Shown in pieces: positions 44,779-63,626 of a stretch of 64,000 bases of DNA; positions within the stretch are counted from its first letter, which is position 1, and every line of letters starts with the position of its first letter. Under the pieces are notes generated by a model. It did not search any database, was not told the DNA's origin, and saw nothing but the letters and a program-made list of their open reading frames with translations. Origin of the DNA: a virus. Its lineage: Duplodnaviria; Heunggongvirae; Uroviricota; Caudoviricetes. The stretch is taken from IMG/VR virus record IMGVR_UViG_2724679236_000008. One strand, given 5' to 3'. A program made the translations under genes and the position numbers.

Positions 44779-46683
44779 TTAGTAACCTATAGCTGTCCAG
44801 TACATATTGCCGTTACCCTCACTGTTAAATTTTGTTCCGGTTCTGGATAGTGAGTTAACAGCAATGCTGTAGTCAAAACGACCATGCGCGTTAGTGATTG
44901 TTATGCTTGTACAGGCAGAGGGAAAAGCTATTGGAAATGTTAACCCTGCTCCAGCATTAGAAATATATCCCCACTGCGTAATAATTCCTGTAGAGACATC
45001 TTTATGCCAGCCATTCGCCGCTTTGAACGCGGTATTTTTAGCCTGATAACGGGAGTCAAAATTACCGTAATCTGACGGGTTAACACGCCCACTAATATTC
45101 AGTAGTTTATTACTTTGAATACTTCCACTCGTAAAGCGGAAAACATGGGCATTGTTAGCATAAACATCAAGAACACCATCGCCATTTTGCTTTAAACCAG
45201 TATCACCATCACCCAGAACAATGGAGTTACCTCCTAAAGCGTTTGCCGTTCTTATACCAAGTGCGCCGTTCAACTGGCCGCCAGATAACGGCAATGCCCC
45301 AACTTCAGCGGCAGTAGGTCTAATATGCGAACTGTAAATTACATAAACCGTTCCATCAGTCAGGCCTGTCGGTTTATTCGCTGTATAAGTTGGTGATGTA
45401 TGAATTTGTACAGTGGCATCCTTTGTATAATCCCACTGGATATTAACACCCGTGGCGTAATTACCTATTTCTACATAAATGTCATAGGTATCACCGGATG
45501 TATTCACCCATGCAAAATTAGTAAATCCTGATGATGTCCGCCGCCATAATGCACCAGTGATGCCTTTAGGGTTTCCATTGCCAGCACGTAAAACAAGTTC
45601 AGATATACCCGCCTGCTGCGGGGAACCGACATTATATCCAGCACCACCAATCAGGCTTACATAAACCACGGAACTGGCCTGTGGCATAGTTACAGTCGCC
45701 AGTTTGAACCATCCTGCACCGCCATTAAAGGATATGGTTGTTGAATTTGTTGTCCCGATGTTGCGCAGGAATAATTTTTTATCAGGAATATCTGCACCGT
45801 TCTGGTTTTTCTGCAATGCTCCAGCAGCTAACTCTACTGTTTGTTCGAGATTTAAATCTTCCGCCGTTAGTTCAATGTCTTCAGAACCATCAAACGAGAC
45901 GCCGTTGATAGTACATGCTGTCTGCAACTTGGTCGCTGTCGCTGCATTACCGGTAGTGTCTTGATTACCTTTTGTATTCACACCAGGCAAATCTATATCG
46001 GCTGAACCATCAAAGGATACACCACCTATGTTTATTGAACTTGCTAATTTCGTTGCTGTTGCTGCATTTCCTGAAAGGCTTGAAACAAACTGATGTGAGC
46101 AGTAATAACCACGTCCATTTTTAAAATCCAGAATGGTTTGAGTATTTGTACTTTCTGCTACTGGATCTGTGGCCCCCCACTTATAGGTGGCTTGACCAAC
46201 GGTATAGTCAGTAGTTGGAACAATTACGTTCAAGCCCTCCTCAGCAAATATCTTGATAGGAAATGCTCTGGCTTCAACGTAAAATACACTACACAAATCG
46301 TCATCTTTCACACTTGAAATAATCGAGTGTATAGCTCGCTCAGCAGTAGAATATATTGAGAAAAAACCAGCCGCATATGAACCGCGATCAGACCAACCGC
46401 CAGGCATAACAAACCCATTAAATTCACAATTATTCATGGCGTATCCGCCAGCTGAGGAATAAGTAGTTATCACAACTCGTGAGGCTAATTCATCGGTACT
46501 GCCTCCAGATCGGCGAAAGACTATAGGATACCACTTACCGCTTACTGCATTTGCAGGCGCTGAAAAAGTGTATTTTCGCATCCCTTTTTTATTGTCTATT
46601 TCGCTTTTGCTGTAAACGTCCAGATCTTTAGGAGTCNNNNNNNNNNAAGTCTGGCGTGCACTCCATGTGTTAGCCGTGCTCAA
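44779..46683 (-). CDS. silent alternative tail-fibre C-terminal cassette (no own start; expressed only after inversion); contains an N10 gap
   Basis: Open frame continues upstream to the cix site; N-terminus [11 protein letters not shown] identical to S residues at 42290; shares the [18 protein letters not shown]...[31 protein letters not shown] module with S. Confidence 0.6.
46637..46646. other. assembly gap (10 N)
   Basis: Literal nnnnnnnnnn in sequence, inside the inverted repeat of the invertible segment. Confidence 0.99.
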
Positions 46684-46713
46684 CAGGGGGATCTTTTCAC
46701 CGCTTGTGCCAAG

Positions 46714-46739
46714 TTCTCTTAAACCAAGGTTTAGGATTG
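46714..46739. other. cix-type inversion crossover site (right), overlapping the 3' end of cin
   Basis: TTCTCTTAAACC-AA-GGTTTAGGATTG: two imperfect inverted 12-bp half-sites around a 2-bp core, same architecture as gix/hix sites. Confidence 0.55.
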
Positions 46740-47291
46740 AAATGATGACGCAGGAAACTTTTTATAAAGCGTGGAAACAGCAACATCATAGATGATTGCA
46801 ACCTGCTTACGGGGGATGCCATTCTCCAGCAATCGACGCATTTGCTGCCATGTTTCTTCCGGGTATTTAGGTCTGCGGCCTCCTATTCGACCTTCTGCGC
46901 GAGCTGCATCAAGTCCAGCGCGTGTACGTTCAACGATAAGCTCGCGTTCCATTTCTGCCAGTGCCCCCATTACGTGAAAGAAAAAGCGCCCCATTGGTGT
47001 ACTGGTGTCGATGGAGTCAGTGAGACTCCGGAAGTTAATTCCTCTGTCACGTAGCTCTTCCACCAGCACAACCAAGTGACGCATGCTGCGCCCAAGGCGA
47101 TCTAACTTCCATACGATCAGGGTGTCACCTCTGGAAAGCATACGCAAAACCTTTTTTAGCCCTGGGCGTTCAGCCTTTTTGCCGCTCGCCTTATCCTCAA
47201 AAATTAGCTCACATCCTGCGCTTTCAAGAGCGTTTCGTTGTAAAGCAGTGTTTTGTTCATTTGTTGATACGCGTACATAGCCTATTAGCAT
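46731..47291 (-). CDS. cin: Cin/Gin/Hin-family serine DNA invertase (186 aa)
   Basis: MLIGYVRVSTNEQNTALQ (catalytic Ser), resolvase/invertase catalytic domain and C-terminal HTH; adjacent to invertible tail-fibre segment. Confidence 0.9.
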   Translation of the reverse strand: MLIGYVRVSTNEQNTALQRNALESAGCELIFEDKASGKKAERPGLKKVLRMLSRGDTLIVWKLDRLGRSMRHLVVLVEELRDRGINFRSLTDSIDTSTPMGRFFFHVMGALAEMERELIVERTRAGLDAARAEGRIGGRRPKYPEETWQQMRRLLENGIPRKQVAIIYDVAVSTLYKKFPASSFQS

Positions 47292-47419
47292 ATTTTCTGC
47301 TCACTATCGTTATTTATAGCAAGCTGCGGATTTTAATTAACAAAAAACCAGTATGTGTGGAAATCACAAAGTACATACCGTTTCCCAATGAGATTTAATT
47401 CACTATTGAGGAAATAGTT

Positions 47420-47701
47420 ATGTTTGATTTCACAATAATGCTCCTCTCCATCCTTGGCGGGGTGCATTCGTTTCTGAATGGGGTTCGTGAAAAACGTTAC
47501 GAAGCGTCATGCAGGCAATTGATGGCCGAGTGTATTGCTGCCGTACTTGCAGGCTTTATAGGCATGTATTTCGCGGAATATAAGGGTATGGATGAAAGTC
47601 TTCAGAATTGCGTGACTATTATTTGCAGCATCAATAACAGGCTCATTCTTGAAAAGTTACAAAGGATTATCGATTCGTACCTCAGTAGAAATGCCTCTTA
47701 A
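47420..47701 (+). CDS. small membrane protein, holin-like (93 aa)
   Basis: Two hydrophobic helices and charged C-terminus; precedes holin/antiholin-like pair. Confidence 0.4.
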   Translation: MFDFTIMLLSILGGVHSFLNGVREKRYEASCRQLMAECIAAVLAGFIGMYFAEYKGMDESLQNCVTIICSINNRLILEKLQRIIDSYLSRNAS

Positions 47702-47702
47702 G

Positions 47703-47727
47703 CAACAAATGACCGGTTGAGAAGTTA
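47703..47727 (+). promoter_or_regulatory. late-promoter-like motif CAACAAATGACcggttgAGAAGTTA
   Basis: Same AACAAATGAC core as 697 and 32123; 40 nt upstream of GTG 47769. Confidence 0.35.
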
Positions 47728-47768
47728 CTTTGCATACCATTACCTCCTGACAACGTAGGAGGGAACTT

Positions 47769-48098
47769 GTGCTTGACACACAGGAATTAGCTCCAGTTGC
47801 TATTGCGCTCCTGCTTTCAGTAATTGGTGGGATAGGCACGTTCCTGATGGATGTCCGAGACGGTCGCCAGTCTGGCAATTTGTTGGGATTGGTTACGGAG
47901 ATCTTTGTTGCAGTGACAGCTGGCGCGGTGGCGTACCTATTGGGGCAACACGAGGGCTGGGAGTTATCAATTACGTACTTAATGGTAACGATAGCCAGCA
48001 ATAACGGTCATGAGGTGATTTCAGGGATGAAACGAGTGAATATCGATAGCATTCTGAATGTTCTTACAAGTTTGGTGAAAAAGGGAGGCGGGAAATGA
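47769..48098 (+). CDS. holin candidate (LydA-position, 109 aa, GTG start)
   Basis: SD AGGAGG 8 nt before GTG; three hydrophobic segments; lysine-rich C-terminus KKGGGK. Confidence 0.5.
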   Translation: MLDTQELAPVAIALLLSVIGGIGTFLMDVRDGRQSGNLLGLVTEIFVAVTAGAVAYLLGQHEGWELSITYLMVTIASNNGHEVISGMKRVNIDSILNVLTSLVKKGGGK

Positions 48099-48538
48099 TT
48101 GGCTGGGGTGTATGCGCTCTTGCGGCAGCCTTAGCTGATCGCTATTTGCTAAAACGCAAGGACATCACGAATTTAGAGCTTGGTGATGTGGAAATTAAAC
48201 CGGGATTTATCCGGGTGCCGTTCAAATATCGGTCTAAATTCCCGTTTTTGCGCGGTGCAACGGTCAGATATTGGATCCGTGATGTTCAGAAGCCGACGAC
48301 AGTGATTGAAGGCGAACAACGTTGCCTGACGTCGGCTGAACAGGGCGAAAACAGTGAATGGTTGTACATACCCACTGAATATATGGGTAAAGGAGAACGA
48401 CTGTGGCATTTCAACGTCATGGTTACGCACGGCGACTCGTTCATTAACCCGTTGTATCGGATTTTCCCTGTTACTCAGCAAATCCGCAGAAGTTACGTAA
48501 TAAATCTCGCACAGGATGTGTCAGATGACGAAAAATAA
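48095..48538 (+). CDS. putative antiholin/lysis regulator (LydB-position, 147 aa)
   Basis: ATGA overlap with holin gene; soluble; assignment by position. Confidence 0.4.
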   Translation: MIGWGVCALAAALADRYLLKRKDITNLELGDVEIKPGFIRVPFKYRSKFPFLRGATVRYWIRDVQKPTTVIEGEQRCLTSAEQGENSEWLYIPTEYMGKGERLWHFNVMVTHGDSFINPLYRIFPVTQQIRRSYVINLAQDVSDDEK

Positions 48539-49127
48539 GTATGCAACGGTCGATTTTGACCAGGTTAATGAAAAGGGGCTGAAATCCCTTATCGCGGCGA
48601 TCAATAAAACCGGTGTTACGGTAATTGAGGTTGACTCCAGCAACCGCGCAACAACGAAAGATGGCGTTAAAGTTAAAACCGCAAAGCTGGTTCTTAACGA
48701 CGGACAAATTCTTGCCATACAGGTAAACGATACTGGTGATATATCGGCTGTGAAACTGAATGGAAAATCTATTCCTAACGCACAGTCGCCAGATATCAAG
48801 ACGCTTGGTACCGTCATGGGGCAAGCGGCCCGCAAAAACTCCGCGAAATTCCAGAAATCACTGATCGCCAAAGCGAAGCGTGTTGCCAATCCGGTAGACA
48901 AGAAACCAGCAGTTAAATCCAACTTTCAGCGCCTGCAAGAAGCAAAACAGCGGAATGCTCAGGTGGTTGCCGCTTATAAGTCCGCGCAGAATTCGGTGTC
49001 TTTCAATCAACAGCAGATCACTGATTTGCGGGCGAAGCTGGATAAGGAGACGGGCCGACTCAATAACGAAAAGGCACGGAATGGCGAACTCAAACGCCGT
49101 CTTAAGCAACTGAAAGCAGGAAATTAA
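48516..49127 (+). CDS. lysine-rich coiled-coil protein (Hdf-position, 203 aa)
   Basis: Overlaps upstream gene; precedes the DarA-like reading frame. Confidence 0.45.
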   Translation: MCQMTKNKYATVDFDQVNEKGLKSLIAAINKTGVTVIEVDSSNRATTKDGVKVKTAKLVLNDGQILAIQVNDTGDISAVKLNGKSIPNAQSPDIKTLGTVMGQAARKNSAKFQKSLIAKAKRVANPVDKKPAVKSNFQRLQEAKQRNAQVVAAYKSAQNSVSFNQQQITDLRAKLDKETGRLNNEKARNGELKRRLKQLKAGN

Positions 49128-49128
49128 C

Positions 49129-51047
49129 ATGGAACAGTTCAATATCAATAAAGGGGTGACGATCAAACCTGGGCTTGACGTGCTTCCCCCGCCAGTGACT
49201 GATGATGAATATCGCGCATTAATGGCCGGTGAGGACCGCTATCTGATGACGGAATCCAACACCCTGGAGGAAATCGAGGCTACGTTCTTCTATGACACGC
49301 CGATCCACTGGTGTGCTACGGATTTACTGGAGGCGATTAGTTCTACTCGTTTGCAGTTACACCGGACCATGCAGGCATTTGTCCGGGCATTGAACCAGAA
49401 GCTGAATGGTACCGGAATCTCTGCGGGGAGTGATAAAACGGGGATGTGGCCCAGAGCGGCGCGCGCGCGATCGGCGGCGCTGAAATTGGTCGGGCACGTA
49501 ACGTTAACGGGCTGCCGGTCCTGCCAGCCATTATTCCGCTCAGTGATGGTCAGACTATCAGCATTTTGTTTCATAGCCCGACAGCGGAAAACCGGATCAC
49601 CAATAGCGATACGCTGGTTGCTTTCCAGTTCTTACTGAATAAAAAAGACGTTACTCACACCGTTGCTCCGATGAGTGGACGTGATATGACGCTGGCGCAG
49701 GTCACCATGAAACTTGCCAACCTTGCAGAGAAAAACTCGGCAAAATTCCAGCGTGCGCAGAAGAAGAAAAAAGCCCTGGTTGATGAAATAACCCAACTAC
49801 AGGCTGACAGTGACCAGAAAGAGGATGCCATGAGCGACCTCGCGGATCAGGTGGCAGCGGTAGAAGGCCAGAAGGCAGATCTGGAGCAGAAAATTAACGC
49901 GGTTGCTTCGGAAGCGGATTCTCTTTATCAAGAAAATGAGCGTTTGCAGGCGGAGATTGAGCAGCTCAATCGCACTGGTGGGCGCGATACCATTGCTCCA
50001 ACGGGGATGACTGGTGGGCACTCTCGCGCGCTGACGGATCGCCTTGCCAGTATCAAAAATCGTATGCATATGGACGGGGAAGCGACGCTCAGTAATGGTG
50101 CATCAATGAAGCAATTCATTGGGGACGGCAAAGGGTATGTCCAGTTAACCGATCCGGATGGCAGCGTGTACATGATCAAGGCTAAATCCATACAGGGTGT
50201 GGACATGGCAGATGCGATCGGCAAGCTGTTTAAAGCCTATAAAGCGGGTAATGTATCGGAATATCTGGTCCAACCAGAAGAGCCTAAACCGGAAAACGTC
50301 GAACCTGAACCAGCGGAGGATACCGGTAGCTCTTCGCCTGAACCAGAAGTCTCTGTAGGTGCATATCGATATGCCCTGCAAATGCGTCCGGCGGCCCCAG
50401 GCGCGATACCTGAAGGTAACAAAGCAATTCTGCCGTGCCCTGATGAAGGTGACCCGTATTATGAATATGCGCGCTACGGCATTGTTACTTACGATACCCC
50501 GCTTTCTGATCAGCAAATGAGTGAGTACGACCTGAAGTTATTGCCTCGCGAGGATTCTTTCGACTTCCTGGCGAAGACACTTACTAATGGTCCGTTTGGC
50601 AAATATGCACAAAAAGCTCTGGAGCTGGCCACCAGCTCACCAGACGAGTTCCGCGTAATGCTGAAAACTCAGTTTCAAAAAACTTTCCCCAATATTGCGT
50701 TTCCGGGGGGCGCAGGCACCGAGAAAATGGTGCAGAGCATGATCAATGCATTGCAGGCCGAAGTCGGTGAGATTACTCAACCAGAATCGGCCCCGGAACA
50801 GCATGATGAAAAGGTTAGCGAAGCAGATGCAGAGGCTAATAAAGCCATTGAATATCTCAATAACGTGATGGATATGCAAAGCACTGACATGGCGGAGATC
50901 CGCAACGCCAGGGGCAATGTCAGGGAAGCGATTGCTGCCCTTCAGGCTGCCGGACGTTTTGATGAAAACGAAGAGCTGGTTAACGGCGCAGCTCGCCACC
51001 TGGCTGATCTGCTGGTAGCAATCCAGAAAGCGGGAGTAGCGGCATGA
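49129..51047 (+). pseudogene. DarA-like head/antirestriction protein gene interrupted by a frameshift near 49435-49470 (or sequencing error)
   Basis: Frame 1 ORF 49129-49638 and frame 0 ORF 49446-51047 together span 1919 bp, the size I recall for intact darA; junction lies in aaaacgggg / gcgcgcgcg runs. Confidence 0.5.
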
Positions 51048-51430
51048 CACTATCAGCTATTGAGTTAATGGACCTCAGCGATAAGTTGGATGCTCTGATG
51101 TCCAAAGCTGCTACCGCGAGTGGCATGGAGTTGCTGGATATCAGCGATGAAATTGACCAGATCATGCAACAGATGGGGTACGGCGCGTCCGGCGGCGGTA
51201 GTGGCGAGGAAAAACAACCTTCAGTACATGATGGTGTGCCAAAACTGGTTGCTGATTTCCTGGCTGATAAATTCGTCGATCAGAGCACCGATGCATTTAT
51301 CGGCACCTTGCAGGACTTGAGTCAATATGTTGGCACATACATCGACCTGGACCAGGTTAAACAGCACACGGCGGCATGGATAGCCGCCAACATTAAAGAG
51401 GCTTCAGGTGTTCGCAGCAACTCTACATGA
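51044..51430 (+). CDS. small acidic protein (DdrA-position, 128 aa)
   Basis: ATGA overlap with preceding frame; followed by a strong terminator. Confidence 0.45.
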   Translation: MTLSAIELMDLSDKLDALMSKAATASGMELLDISDEIDQIMQQMGYGASGGGSGEEKQPSVHDGVPKLVADFLADKFVDQSTDAFIGTLQDLSQYVGTYIDLDQVKQHTAAWIAANIKEASGVRSNST

Positions 51431-51491
51431 GCTGTAGTTTTCGAAGATTCTCACAAGTTCATTTCGCGTAGGTATTTATTTAACCATTAAA

Positions 51492-51529
51492 GCCGAATGC
51501 GGCGGGCACACCACATTCGGCAATTTTTT
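51492..51529. terminator. rho-independent terminator between Dar-type operon and convergent gldA
   Basis: GCCGAATG-(14 nt loop)-CATTCGGC followed by AATTTTTTG. Confidence 0.6.
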
Positions 51530-51563
51530 GAAAACTATCAATGAATTAAATAATCAGAGGGGC

Positions 51564-52667
51564 TTATTCCCACTCTTGCAGGAAACGCTGACCGTACTGG
51601 TCGGCTACCAGCAGTGCAGCATAAACCTGATCTGGCGTTGCGCCGCCAGGCATGTTGTGGATGGTTTCACCTTCTGCACATGCCGCTTCTGCGACAATCC
51701 GCATTTTCGCCGGGATATCTTCTTTAATATCCAGTTGTGCCAGGGTAATTGGCAGGCCGACAGCATGGCACAGCGCAGCTACGGTTTCGATTTCTTCAAC
51801 TGGTGCGTTTTCCAGAACCAGTTGCGTCAGCGTACCGAATGCCACTTTCTCACCGTGATAATAGTGATGCGCATCCGGAATGGCCGTCAGGCCATTGTGC
51901 ACCGCGTGCGCCGCCGCCAGGCCGCCGCTTTCAAAGCCCACGCCGCTCAAATAGGTGTTAGCTTCAATCACACGTTCCAGCGCCGGAGTCACCACATGCT
52001 GTTCAGCGGCAAGCATCGCTTTTTCGCCTTCTTCCAGCAGGGTGTTGTAGCACAGTTCAGCCAGAGCCAGTGCTGCCTGAGTACATTTACCGCCCGCCAT
52101 CGTGGTTGCGCCGCTGCGGGAACAGGCACGTGCTTCAAACCAGGTTGCCAACGCATCGCCAATACCCGCCGCTAACAGACGTGCAGGTGCGCCAGCAACA
52201 ATTTTGGTATCCACAATGACGCGTTCCGGGTTGTTTGGCAGCATCAGATAACGTTCAAACTCACCATCATCGGTGTAGATAACGGAAAGGGCGCTGCAAG
52301 GTGCGTCGGTTGAGGCAATGGTTGGGGCAACTGCAACAGGAACGCCCATAAAGTGTGCCAGTGCTTTGGCTGTATCGAGGGTTTTACCTCCGCCGATTCC
52401 CAGAATTGCGCTACACTGAGCATTCTCTGCAATACCCCGCAGACGATCGATTTCATTTTGCGAACATTCACCGCCGAACGGGGCAATTTCTACCTCTATC
52501 CCAGCATCTTTAAAACTTTTCTCAATATTAGTTTGAGCAAAACCTAACACAAATTTGTCACCTACCACCAACCAATGTTCTGCCAGCGGTTTCAGGTATT
52601 CACCCAGGCGATTAATGACATCTGCGCCTTGGATGTATTTACCCGGTGATTGAATGATGCGGTCCAT
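51564..52667 (-). CDS. gldA: glycerol dehydrogenase GldA (iron-containing alcohol dehydrogenase family, 367 aa), host-like
   Basis: Full-length, essentially colinear with E. coli GldA as I recall it ([30 protein letters not shown]...GIGGGKTLD...[11 protein letters not shown]); own SD AAAGGAG. Confidence 0.9.
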
Positions 52668-52738
52668 AATTGCTCCTTTAGAGATGAGTTATGCTAAATG
52701 TTTTGTTATTCCCGGATGACCTTCTGTATATATCTTAA

Positions 52739-52757
52739 GTCAACATTATAAGTTGAC
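52739..52757. promoter_or_regulatory. perfect palindrome GTCAAC-ATTATAA-GTTGAC in the gldA upstream region
   Basis: 19-bp dyad, 70 nt upstream of gldA start. Confidence 0.3.
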
Positions 52758-52969
52758 GCCAATATTCCGTAGAAGAGATGTTACTTCGCGAGCAGTATGA
52801 CTCCATAGGTTTCTGAGACGTTACTTTGCATATGATATTGCTGAGGCAAATACATTCAATGCCGCATTTTGTGAGATTTTAAGCCAATCTACATCACCAT
52901 TAGGTAAGAGTATCTTTTTTTGGTGGTGATGGCGCAATGTATCAGTGGACAGCATAAGGTGTAACAGGG

Positions 52970-54658
52970 ATGTGTTTGAACGATCATACAGTTATGGCCA
53001 CCAGCAGCGGCTACATCGGTGTGGCACCGTATACCCGCTTGCTATTACATCAGGCATCCGGCATCAAAGATATTATTCACCTGATCAGGCTGCTTTCCCG
53101 TACAGATCCCCAGGATGAACAGCTTGTTCAAGTGCTTGCGCATTTTGTCCGAATGCCTGTTGCCGACGTGAAAAAATGGTGCCGATTATTCGGTATCAGC
53201 AATTCGTTACTTCGCGGATTGTTAAATCACGCATCCTCCCTTGGGCGCGACGGATTTGATGAGATAGCGCAGGCGATAAAAAACGGAGATATGCCACCAG
53301 CTATTGACTGGTTTTCCATTCGCCCAACCAGGGTGAAAGCATTCCTTAGTGCGGCGCAATCAGCATCACCATTGGCAGAAATGGTTCAGAGGTTGTCGCT
53401 CATATTCACAGATCATACCGCGTTCGGTGATCTGGCTCTGGACGAGATGAAAGAAGCCTCCATTCAGTGGGCCGATCAACAAAATGAGGTTAACTCAGAC
53501 TTCTTGCCAGCATTCAGGAAGGCCGTTAGTAAAGCGGATGATGCCCGTGGAATTCTGAAGGCATTTAAGGCATTGCAAAGTCGGGTTAATAAACATGTCG
53601 GTGATATCGATGGGGTAACGGCGGAAGGCAGGGATATCCTTAAAGAGCACGGCATAACGCCAGAGTTTATTGATGAGATCAGGACGGATATGCAGCGTGA
53701 GGTCGTATCGTCTCTGCAAATCGTAGCCAGGGCGTTGGCGGATGCTAATCCGAAGAGTGCGGCCATTGTTAACCGGGTTATTGGTGATATTGAAGCATCT
53801 GAGGGCATGGGGGCACTGAAACTCTTCCTTTCGCGAGCGTTTAATCCTAACGGCAATATTCTCCCTGGCATTATTGGTGAGGCTAAAAAGTATGTCAGCG
53901 AAGAAGAACTTGAGCATCTTGACCAACTACTTAAGCGATTCTCATATAACCCGCAGACACGCTGGCAAATGAATCAGCGAAGTATGGGGTCGGTCCACGA
54001 GAAAGTGTTATCTGCCATGAACAGTGCGATCGCCAACTCATCCGTATCTGAAGAAAAAGCTCTTGAGTGGGCCGACTCTTTTATCACGGAAGAAGTGGAA
54101 GAAGCCCGCGCTGGACAGAATGGTGGGATAGACCTGCGCAAGGAACTTGCTGATATTTATCGCCTGACCGGCGGGAAAATATCGACCTTATCAAAGGTAG
54201 TTCACCACCAGGGAAGGGCATATGCAAATCTAAATGGTGTTGTTGCTGTCAATTTGAACGATGAAAATGCAAGTGCACTGTGGCACGAGCTGGGTCATCA
54301 TCTTGAGTACAGTAACCCTGGTTTGTTAGAGAAAGCCCGGTCATTCCTGAAGGCCAATGTTGAAGGGGATAAACCATCTTTCGTTAATATCGGTGGGCGT
54401 GGCAAGCCTGAATGGTGCTTCAGATCTCAATTGAGTAATATTTATATGGCGAAGGTATACCCGCCAGTCTCAGTAAGTAACACCGGGAAAATTCGGCAGA
54501 AATCACCGACTATTTCCAAAACGTCAGCAACGGAAGTATTCTCTATGGCTCTTCAGTTGTATCATGACAAAGAGGCCGCTGCCGCATCACTGATGAATGG
54601 TGACGGATTGCTGGAACTGTTATTAGGTGTGGCAAAGGAGCTAAATAATGCAGATTAA
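52970..54658 (+). CDS. HExxH-motif protein, putative zinc metallopeptidase-like effector (562 aa)
   Basis: WHELGHHLEY at about residue 455; otherwise no recognisable family; occupies the position after the DdrA-like gene. Confidence 0.55.
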   Translation: MCLNDHTVMATSSGYIGVAPYTRLLLHQASGIKDIIHLIRLLSRTDPQDEQLVQVLAHFVRMPVADVKKWCRLFGISNSLLRGLLNHASSLGRDGFDEIAQAIKNGDMPPAIDWFSIRPTRVKAFLSAAQSASPLAEMVQRLSLIFTDHTAFGDLALDEMKEASIQWADQQNEVNSDFLPAFRKAVSKADDARGILKAFKALQSRVNKHVGDIDGVTAEGRDILKEHGITPEFIDEIRTDMQREVVSSLQIVARALADANPKSAAIVNRVIGDIEASEGMGALKLFLSRAFNPNGNILPGIIGEAKKYVSEEELEHLDQLLKRFSYNPQTRWQMNQRSMGSVHEKVLSAMNSAIANSSVSEEKALEWADSFITEEVEEARAGQNGGIDLRKELADIYRLTGGKISTLSKVVHHQGRAYANLNGVVAVNLNDENASALWHELGHHLEYSNPGLLEKARSFLKANVEGDKPSFVNIGGRGKPEWCFRSQLSNIYMAKVYPPVSVSNTGKIRQKSPTISKTSATEVFSMALQLYHDKEAAAASLMNGDGLLELLLGVAKELNNAD

Positions 54659-61703: not shown

Positions 61704-61904
61704 ATGAAAAAGCTATATGCGGGAGTGTTTCGCTGTTCAAGTGTCAGCGAAATATTGAAATACATTAGGGCAATAACATCTCATAGAGCGCCGATTAGAT
61801 ACGGCGTGGAAAAGGTGGAAGGCAAAAGCTATGACCGGCTGCGTTGGGAGGCGAATCAAAAGGCGATAGATTTGCTGAATTTCTTGGTGTTAATCGTGTA
61901 TTAA
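61704..61904 (+). CDS. small hypothetical protein (66 aa)
   Basis: SD AAGGATT before ATG; lies at the transition from phage genes to the AT-rich fimbrial region. Confidence 0.35.
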   Translation: MKKLYAGVFRCSSVSEILKYIRAITSHRAPIRYGVEKVEGKSYDRLRWEANQKAIDLLNFLVLIVY

Positions 61905-62270
61905 CCGCACAGAGCAGTGCCTTGCGAGAGTAACAGTTCAGCACGAATATGACGCGCAGTTTTTTCACTGTTACTCATAGCTGAACTTGATCCCATCAGA
62001 GCGCCACCGCAGCGCTAGAGGTCTTTTGTTCCGAGAAAAATGTTCAAGAAGTAATGCATTCATTACATTCCATTTTTTCAATTTTATATTGGCCAGAACG
62101 TTATTCCTTGTTTTGGCTGGATAATAGAAAGTCAAAATACCGCAATATGCGTATTTCATAACTTGACCAAATATTAACAGACTAATAATTAATGTTCTAG
62201 TTGTGTGTGGAAAGGGTTAATTACCTCCCTTATTATTTATGATAATAATGAATATTTGTTTAACTTATAT

Positions 62271-62291
62271 GTTTGTGTTTGTGTTTGTGTT
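62271..62291. repeat. hexanucleotide tandem repeat (GTTTGT)x3.5
   Basis: gtttgtgtttgtgtttgtgtt in AT-rich regulatory DNA upstream of the fimbrial regulator gene. Confidence 0.5.
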
Positions 62292-62625
62292 GAAGTGGTC
62301 GCAGATTTAATTATCGATGATAAGGTTTATATGTTTGGGTTTTTTATAAAAAATCTAAACAATATTCTGCGTTTAAAAAAAACGATAAAAGATCGATTTT
62401 ATTGGTTGCTACATCATTTTATCTTGATGATAACCGTATTGTTTGGTGTTTTGTGCTGGTTTTGTTTTATGGATTGGTTTTTTGTTTTGGTTGTTGTCTG
62501 TGTATTGGCGAAAAAGATCGTTAATAAGGTATTGAACAGAATTTGATGCTGAATAAAATAGCGCACAAATTTCATATGACGTATTTCTCTTGGTTTTGAA
62601 AGTAGGAAAACAGTAGGGGAATATA

Positions 62626-62913
62626 ATGTCTAACTATAGTAGTATTGATTCTTCTAACTATCGGTGGGACGGTAACTCTTTTATTATAGGAGGGGGCTCT
62701 CTCTCAAGTGAGCAGTTTGATTTGTTAGTTGAGCTTTCTTCAATTCACAGTAAAAAGGTTATTTTGGCCATGCACGACCATCTTGTTCTGGGAGATTCGC
62801 GTAAGGTTGTGTGCGAAAGGTATGGGGTTAATGCTGGTTATTTGAGTGTATGTATCGGGCGCCTACTTAGAGTTGAAAGAAACGTGTCAAAACTAGTTAG
62901 ATTTTATTGCTGA
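62626..62913 (+). CDS. PapB/FanA-family fimbrial operon transcriptional regulator (95 aa)
   Basis: LVELSSIHSKKVILAMHDHLVLGDSRKVVCERYGVNAGYLSVCIGRLLRVERNV resembles the PapB-family core. Confidence 0.65.
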   Translation: MSNYSSIDSSNYRWDGNSFIIGGGSLSSEQFDLLVELSSIHSKKVILAMHDHLVLGDSRKVVCERYGVNAGYLSVCIGRLLRVERNVSKLVRFYC

Positions 62914-63094
62914 TGACAATGATAAACGTAATCTTAGTATAACGAATTAATGTTGTACGTATATTTCTTGGGTGTATATAGATGGGGTGGCGTTATTTTC
63001 TTTTTTTTAGGGAGAAAGTAGCGACACATCATTATATGTGTCCTGTAATTTCATACTCGATTAATTGAGTTCAGTAATCACGGAGTTTTATAAC

Positions 63095-63604
63095 ATGAAA
63101 AAATTAATGGTTGCTTCTGCAATTGCAATGATCATGGCAGCAGGTTCTGCAATGGCGTCCCAGGGAGATGTTAAGTTCTTTGGTAACGTAACTGAAGTTA
63201 CCTGTGATGTAACTCCGGAAGTTGGTGGTACTGTTACTGATCTGGTTCAGCTGGGTACTGTAGAAAAAGGCGGTACTGGAGATGAAGTTGATCTGGTAAT
63301 TAAAGCAACTAGTGCTGCAGGAGGTTGTGCTCAGCTGACAGGAAAAACAGCATCCATTGCATGGAGTGGCAATTTGACTACGGATGGTATTGGCGCTCAG
63401 GGAGGGCTGGCGCAAGATGCTTATGTTATTCTGAAACCTGCAAATGGTAATGATGATACTGCTATCACTTCTGCTGATTATGTAGCTGATTTTGATGCAA
63501 CAAAAGCTACTACGGATGGTTTTAAATTTACCGCTCAGCTGAAAGGTGGTAATACTCCAGGTGACTTCCAGTCTGCGGCGGCTTACGCAGTTACTTACAA
63601 GTAA
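63095..63604 (+). CDS. chaperone-usher fimbrial major subunit (pilin), 169-aa precursor
   Basis: Signal peptide MKKLMVASAIAMIMAAGSAMA, conserved Cys pair (TCDV...GGCAQ), C-terminal beta-strand ending VTYK; SD ACGGAG. Confidence 0.7.
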   Translation: MKKLMVASAIAMIMAAGSAMASQGDVKFFGNVTEVTCDVTPEVGGTVTDLVQLGTVEKGGTGDEVDLVIKATSAAGGCAQLTGKTASIAWSGNLTTDGIGAQGGLAQDAYVILKPANGNDDTAITSADYVADFDATKATTDGFKFTAQLKGGNTPGDFQSAAAYAVTYK

Positions 63605-63626
63605 TTCCTGAACTTTATCTCCTTTT

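Follow-up and report, generated by a model that had tools for sequence, protein, structure and literature searches.

The window, that is, the whole 64,000-nucleotide stretch of DNA analysed here, is scaffold BBVS01000021.1 of Escherichia albertii CB9791 (assembly GCA_001514845.1). Its gene order lydC-lydA-lydB-hdf-darA-ddrA is that of phage P1, for which a late operon LPdar-lydA-lydB-hdf-darA-ddrA-ddrB is annotated. Positions 47695-47775 of the window are 100% identical to positions 1796-1876 of the P1 locus (L003), where the P1 LPdar promoter is annotated at 1823-1841. As the promoter region is the same as in P1, late transcription of the operon during infection has probably been retained. 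At the place of darA, the ORF list holds two ORFs on the plus strand lying in different frames, ORF1 (49129-49638, 169 aa) and ORF2 (49446-51047, 533 aa), which overlap at 49446-49638 and jointly span 1919 bp. These coordinates exactly reproduce those of the first-pass annotation, in which the two ORFs were read as a single DarA-like gene split by a frameshift. The 1919 bp were then taken as the size of an intact darA, which is off by one base: P1 darA (P1_gp024, NC_005856.1) counts 1920 bp for 639 aa, and the window copy is thus 1 base short. The features considered below are the following, with pEA4_97 (NZ_CP117679.1) and pEA16-1_1 (NZ_CP117651.1) being two P1-like plasmids of E. albertii.

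47722-47740, plus strand: LPdar late promoter of the lydA-lydB-hdf-darA-ddrA-ddrB operon, predicted by identity with P1.
48516-49127, plus strand: hdf, intact; 98% to residues 1-203 of P1 Hdf, with a DarA_N match (E = 3.8e-21).
49129-49443, plus strand: 5' part of darA in the original frame, DarA residues 1-105; tblastn 99%, weak DarA_N match.
49440-49443, plus strand: the lesion, GGGG against GGGGG in intact relatives; alignments and a G4-specific 42-bp probe.
49444-49638, plus strand: out-of-frame tail of ORF1, 64 missense codons closed by TGA at 49636-49638; ORF list and translation.
49446-51047, plus strand: 3' part of darA in the shifted frame; tblastn 96.6% to P1 and 99.8% to pEA16-1_1, Pfam.
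51044-51430, plus strand: ddrA, intact; 96.7% to residues 1-121 of P1 DdrA (tblastn).
51564-52667, minus strand: gldA (glycerol dehydrogenase); annotation of pEA4_97 and pEA16-1_1.
52970-54658, plus strand: ddrB remnant, DdrB residues 448-995 only; BLASTP 97% to the 995-aa P1 DdrB.
61704-61889, plus strand: darB stub, residues 1-62 of 2255; tblastn of the pEA16-1_1 DarB against the window and pEA4_97.

The DarA-like nature of the split gene is borne out by similarity, synteny and domain content. Megablast with positions 48900-51300 as query matched 20 phage records, 19 of which (P1, P7, SJ46, RCS47 and similar phages) align over the full query with 97.2-97.5% identity, the features under the match being Hdf, DarA and DdrA. 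The same query matches 478 plasmid records, nearly all of them P1-like, non-mobilizable and from Escherichia and Salmonella. Over darA itself, DNA identity to P1 is 97.3%. By tblastn, residues 1-105 of P1 DarA fall on 49129-49443 with 99% identity, and residues 105-639 on 49440-51044, in another frame, with 96.6% identity. This alignment of both ORF products to P1 DarA, proposed earlier as a check, therefore places the change of frame at residue 105. Both Pfam domains of the family, DarA_N (PF18788) and DarA_C (PF18789), are present, with ORF2 scoring 119.6 bits for the former and 62.3 bits for the latter, above the Pfam gathering score of 27. DarA_N is itself cut by the frameshift, positions 2-32 of the profile being found in ORF1 (19.7 bits, below the cut-off of 27) and positions 30-122 in ORF2. 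The gene thus has the homology, the two domains and the operon position of the DarA family and lacks the single frame of ~639 codons. Judged by sequence, domains and synteny, it is darA, and because the uninterrupted reading frame is missing it is to be called a pseudogene rather than a functional member.

Whole-gene alignments to P1 and to pEA16-1_1 display only one indel. The G run following AAAAC, which reads GGGGG (G5) in P1 and pEA16-1_1, is one base shorter in the window, reading GGGG (G4) at 49440-49443, and G5 is found at this site in all intact relatives examined. The junction in the window reads gataaaacggggatgtggcccagagcggcgcgcgcgcgatc. Putting back one G regains the 639-codon frame, and the two halves in the window match the pEA16-1_1 DarA with 99.0% and 99.8% identity. 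The original frame resumes at 49440 (residues 105-639), the GTG at 49446 being the mechanical start of ORF2. The break at residue 105 is located inside DarA_N, in the hexon-binding region. The frameshift in a homopolymer suggested by the first-pass annotation can therefore be specified as a 1-bp deletion, from G5 to G4, most probably caused by slippage during replication of the short G run. The same annotation had counted the neighbouring GC-repeat run (49458-49468) as part of the junction, which does not hold, as this run is base-for-base that of P1. The GCGCGCGCGCG tract was accordingly rejected as a slippage site, the same sequence being found in the window, P1 and pEA16-1_1.

A single missing base may be either a mutation or an error, and both options had been left side by side at the first reading. 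CB9791 was obtained from a symptomatic human in 2003 (Ooka et al. 2015, supplementary table), and its draft genome was assembled with Platanus from Illumina MiSeq reads only. The best plasmid match of the window is pEA4_97, carried by E. albertii BIA_4, a wild bird isolate collected in 2015-2018 in north-eastern Poland and sequenced by MiSeq and MinION, with Canu assembly followed by Illumina polishing. The darA region of pEA4_97 is 100% identical to that of the window and displays the same G4. The window was considered as a plain rotation of pEA4_97, which was rejected, mapping showing a distinct sister sequence. Indeed, 10 SNPs, one 6-bp TGTTTG unit and a scaffold gap separate the two over 64 kb, which indicates distinct isolates, and no 1-bp indel difference was found across these 64 kb, the assemblies being in agreement at all homopolymers.

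These data bear directly on the view that G4 is a sequencing or assembly artefact and that the true plasmid carries G5 with an intact darA. Homopolymer deletions are known in deposited darA sequences (C5 to C4 in ON470617.2, A6 to A5 in ON470615.2), pEA4_97 was built by Canu from MinION reads before polishing, and it displays a second G5 to G4 frameshift in hsdM. An artefact is nevertheless highly unlikely, as the Illumina-only window, from another strain and another laboratory, carries G4 too, in assemblies showing no other 1-bp disagreement over 64 kb. The presence of the same allele in two isolates differing in host, year, laboratory and chemistry argues that G4 is genuine. A systematic miscall at the site is likewise contradicted by pEA16-1_1, which comes from the same Polish study and pipeline as pEA4_97, has G5 and encodes an intact 639-aa DarA, as well as by the other intact relatives examined, which all read G5. 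In addition, the 533-aa ORF2 product is on record at NCBI and in Logan assemblies of public read sets (3 contigs), and it was by exact look-up of this protein that the window was assigned to BBVS01000021.1. In the PLSDB table of pEA4_97, from which pseudogenes are omitted, the locus tag expected between hdf and ddrA does not appear, consistent with RefSeq already treating this darA as a pseudogene. Thus, of the two options, inactivation is favoured and assembly error disfavoured by the occurrence of G4 in two independent assemblies. On the agreement of these assemblies together with the Logan record, the frameshift is taken as real and inherited.

The G4 allele appears to be rare. Of the 469 plasmid records matched by a 76-bp query over the site, pEA4_97 alone is 100% identical. 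In the 5,426 complete E. coli genomes, 464 records were matched, none of them at 100% identity, and, among the matches listed, all span 77 bp, i.e., G5. A 42-bp probe (49421-49462), on which megablast seeding is possible for the G4 form alone, has pEA4_97 as its sole match among 72,556 plasmid records and no match in the 5,426 complete E. coli genomes. Within these collections, the allele appears private to one small CB9791/BIA_4 lineage and stable there, which argues against a phase-variable tract.

A regulated switch, operating either by slipped-strand phase variation or by programmed -1 frameshifting that yields full-length DarA, could be suspected from the position of the lesion in a homopolymer. 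Moreover, a tRNA-Gly in the P site on GGG 49441-49443 could re-pair perfectly at 49440-49442, restoring the frame. However, phase variation is not efficient in a tract of only 4-5 G, no other carrier of G4 occurs among the ~470 plasmid and 464 E. coli matches, and the allele was unchanged in two isolates whose collection dates lie more than 12 years apart. Variation of tract length among close relatives, by which a phase-variable locus is recognized, is not seen. For programmed frameshifting, the X XXY YYZ slippery heptamer is absent, the site reading GAT AAA ACG GGG ATG, and the conserved two-frame architecture is lacking, DarA being one ORF in all intact relatives examined. A switch is therefore extremely improbable, even if trace read-through could occur by tRNA-Gly slipping back one base on GGGG. 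With regard to the age of the lesion, only 4 SNPs separate darA from its intact counterpart in pEA16-1_1, with ~2 amino-acid changes, which are too few to gauge relaxed selection. So small a number points to a recent frameshift, and hence to the absence of secondary decay, such as further stops, that would confirm a loss of constraint.

Altogether, the darA of this P1-like phage-plasmid has very probably been inactivated by the loss of 1 bp (G5 to G4, 49440-49443), a true mutation passed on by vertical inheritance. The consequences for the protein can be predicted from P1. According to the cryo-EM study of P1 (PMC12810830), the Pro protease cleaves off DarA residues 1-69, residues 102-116 form the hexon-binding loop and the capsid is lined by 55 DarA-Hdf pairs. 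Translation from the darA ATG would exit the DarA frame after residue 105 and stop at 49636-49638. The resulting 169-aa product would hold the cleaved N-terminal propeptide, ~35 mature residues and 64 unrelated residues. As residues 1-69 are removed from DarA, ORF1 encodes little beyond a discarded propeptide. No record of the 169-aa product was found by exact protein look-up.

The remaining 534 darA codons would be left without a convincing translation start of their own. Reading of the sequence revealed no convincing Shine-Dalgarno ahead of any in-frame start codon of ORF2. The GTG at 49446 lies inside the translated ORF1, without a properly spaced Shine-Dalgarno, and the first ATG past the ORF1 stop is at 49671, a start at which drops DarA residues 1-181. 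In an exact look-up, ORF2 is on record only in its GTG-49446 form, the forms from later start codons being absent. The two pieces might still make up a split but functional gene, with an N-terminal piece and an internally initiated or reinitiated C-terminal piece jointly supplying DarA function, since the first ~69 residues of DarA are cleaved anyway, most of DarA_N and all of DarA_C are kept in ORF2, and ORF2 is predicted by a gene caller as a protein of 533 aa. This arrangement is very unlikely in view of the poor GTG start within ORF1, of the loss of residues 1-181, including the hexon-binding domain, from the ATG 49671 start, and of the interruption of the hexon-binding loop by the break. 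Besides, pEA4_97 apart, the G4 probe found the split architecture in no other P1-like element, either among the plasmids or among the E. coli genomes. Low-level spontaneous -1 slippage on GGGG, or internal initiation, could give a little functional protein.

With darA inactivated, the particles formed from the prophage can be expected to differ from those of P1. In the same P1 study (PMC12810830), deletion of darA or hdf keeps DarB, DdrA, DdrB and Ulx out of the virion and lowers the proportion of normal-size heads from ~80% to ~15%. By inference from P1 genetics, any particles formed by the CB9791 prophage would be devoid of DarA and, in consequence, of every other Dar protein. Small heads should predominate among them, and the packaged DNA would have no protection from type I restriction. 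An effect on the next gene is also predicted. The ddrA ATG overlaps the darA stop (ATGA, 51044-47), and ddrA, which is translationally coupled to darA, should drop in expression because of 1.4 kb of untranslated RNA upstream, through lost coupling and Rho-dependent polarity.

The other members of the Dar system have been affected to various degrees. Hdf, which pairs with DarA at the inner face of the capsid, is intact, with a 200-aa form in the RefSeq annotation of pEA4_97, and DdrA carries 7 extra C-terminal amino acids compared to P1 in the junction alignment. Downstream, a gldA segment (51431-53011) that is absent from P1 occupies the place of the first ~447 codons of ddrB. The locus tag of the ddrB remnant is missing from the protein tables of both E. 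albertii records. The first 12 residues of its ORF are weakly similar to the DdrB N-terminus (8/12 identical). The arrangement of ddrA, gldA and truncated ddrB was found in 15 plasmids, all from E. albertii. Beyond the darB stub, the rest of the gene is replaced by a pap/pef-like fimbrial operon encoding a papB-like regulator, a major subunit, a PefC usher and a chaperone. The swapped region runs from 61704 to 64000 and on past the end of the window (45497-51094 in pEA4_97), and the junction joining the portal gene, the darB stub and the fimbrial genes is common to at least 12 E. albertii P1-like plasmids. To judge from this junction, the phage antirestriction gene darB has been exchanged for adhesin cargo. 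Outside the window, ulx has a 2-bp deletion in pEA4_97 (record position 54574). Comparison of pEA4_97 with the pEA16-1_1 ORFs of at least 150 aa revealed darA, ulx and hsdM as the only frameshift-split genes, the other shared phage genes looking intact.

Relatives sharing the ddrB and darB losses keep G5 in darA, which implies that the losses of ddrB and darB came first and became widespread, and that darA was lost later, in the CB9791/BIA_4 sub-lineage only. The maintenance of an intact darA after the loss of ddrB and darB is consistent with a separate role in head size. The darA frameshift might close a step-by-step loss of the six-protein Dar antirestriction system, coming after the exchange of darB for fimbrial genes, the trimming of ddrB beside an acquired gldA and the ulx frameshift, whereby an infectious phage would become either a cargo plasmid or a source of mainly small-headed particles. 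This scenario is put forward tentatively, as a possibility that we consider rather doubtful. If it is true, an eroded E. albertii lineage has persisted for more than 10 years in humans and wild birds in Europe.

Some further differences were noted in the window and its sister plasmid. A hexanucleotide repeat, TGTTTG x 3.7, is found at 62270-62291 upstream of the papB-like regulator, in a region containing GATC sites. The extra unit in the window corresponds to 62270-62275 and is the only length difference from pEA4_97 besides the scaffold gap. This repeat may tune or phase-vary fimbrial expression. The scaffold gap consists of 10 N at 46637-46646 standing for 112 bp of pEA4_97. It sits in the invertible tail-fibre C-segment adjoining cin and is probably due to failure of the short-read assembler at inverted repeats or mixed orientations. 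At 52870, the window and pEA4_97 have T4, compared to T5 in pEA16-1_1 and others. This intergenic site upstream of gldA has no coding effect. As for hsdM, encoding a type I restriction-modification methylase, its G5 to G4 frameshift in pEA4_97 (L007, record position 70404) falls beyond the window; it may be a true mutation or an error left over from the long reads.

The inactivation of a prophage gene by a homopolymer frameshift is a well-known kind of event, and the phenotype expected here is already known from laboratory mutants. The only mildly new aspect is that stepwise Dar decay in an E. albertii phage-plasmid lineage ends in a darA-null allele that is natural and inherited. For annotation, this is a routine pseudogene call: darA should be marked as a frameshifted pseudogene, neither as two hypothetical proteins nor as an assembly error. 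The case is of modest biological interest, as the packaging of every Dar antirestriction protein hinges on DarA, which also helps to determine head size. With their stably inherited natural darA-null allele, CB9791 and BIA_4 are ready-made strains in which to ask whether P1-like phage-plasmids without the antirestriction system stay infectious, and they also bear on how such elements decay into plain plasmids.

Compared to known systems, the darA of the window, flanks included, is ~97% identical to that of P1 in DNA and shares its operon position and Pfam domains, but the loss of one G at codon 105/106 leaves it unable to encode the 639-aa product, and its downstream ddrB and darB are damaged or absent. 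The closest intact allele is that of pEA16-1_1 (WP_059221992.1), with 99.7% identity and 4 SNPs in 1920 bp. This plasmid comes from the same host species and shares the same ddrA, gldA and truncated ddrB arrangement, whereas it has G5, an intact 639-aa ORF and a full-length 2255-aa darB. P1 strains made darA-null in the laboratory (Iida et al. 1987; Piya et al. 2017), whose properties are recounted in PMC12810830, do not package Dar proteins, are sensitive to type I restriction and have mostly small heads. They resemble the CB9791 element in the loss of DarA, and it is from these mutants that the phenotype here is predicted. However, they were engineered or selected in an otherwise complete Dar system, whereas the window carries a natural allele, kept in wild isolates, in a background where darB and ddrB were already defective.

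The phage records ON470617.2 and ON470615.2 (L004 and L005) offer a last parallel. They carry one to three darA homopolymer deletions, and such 1-bp deletions in short homopolymers split darA into several ORFs, annotated as separate hypothetical proteins. They differ from the window in that the deletions lie elsewhere in darA (C5 at window position 49190, A6 at 49645 and at 50677), none being shared between records, and are probably uncorrected long-read errors. The deletion in the window recurs in an independent isolate, whereas the phage deletions come several to one gene, a pattern in keeping with read error.
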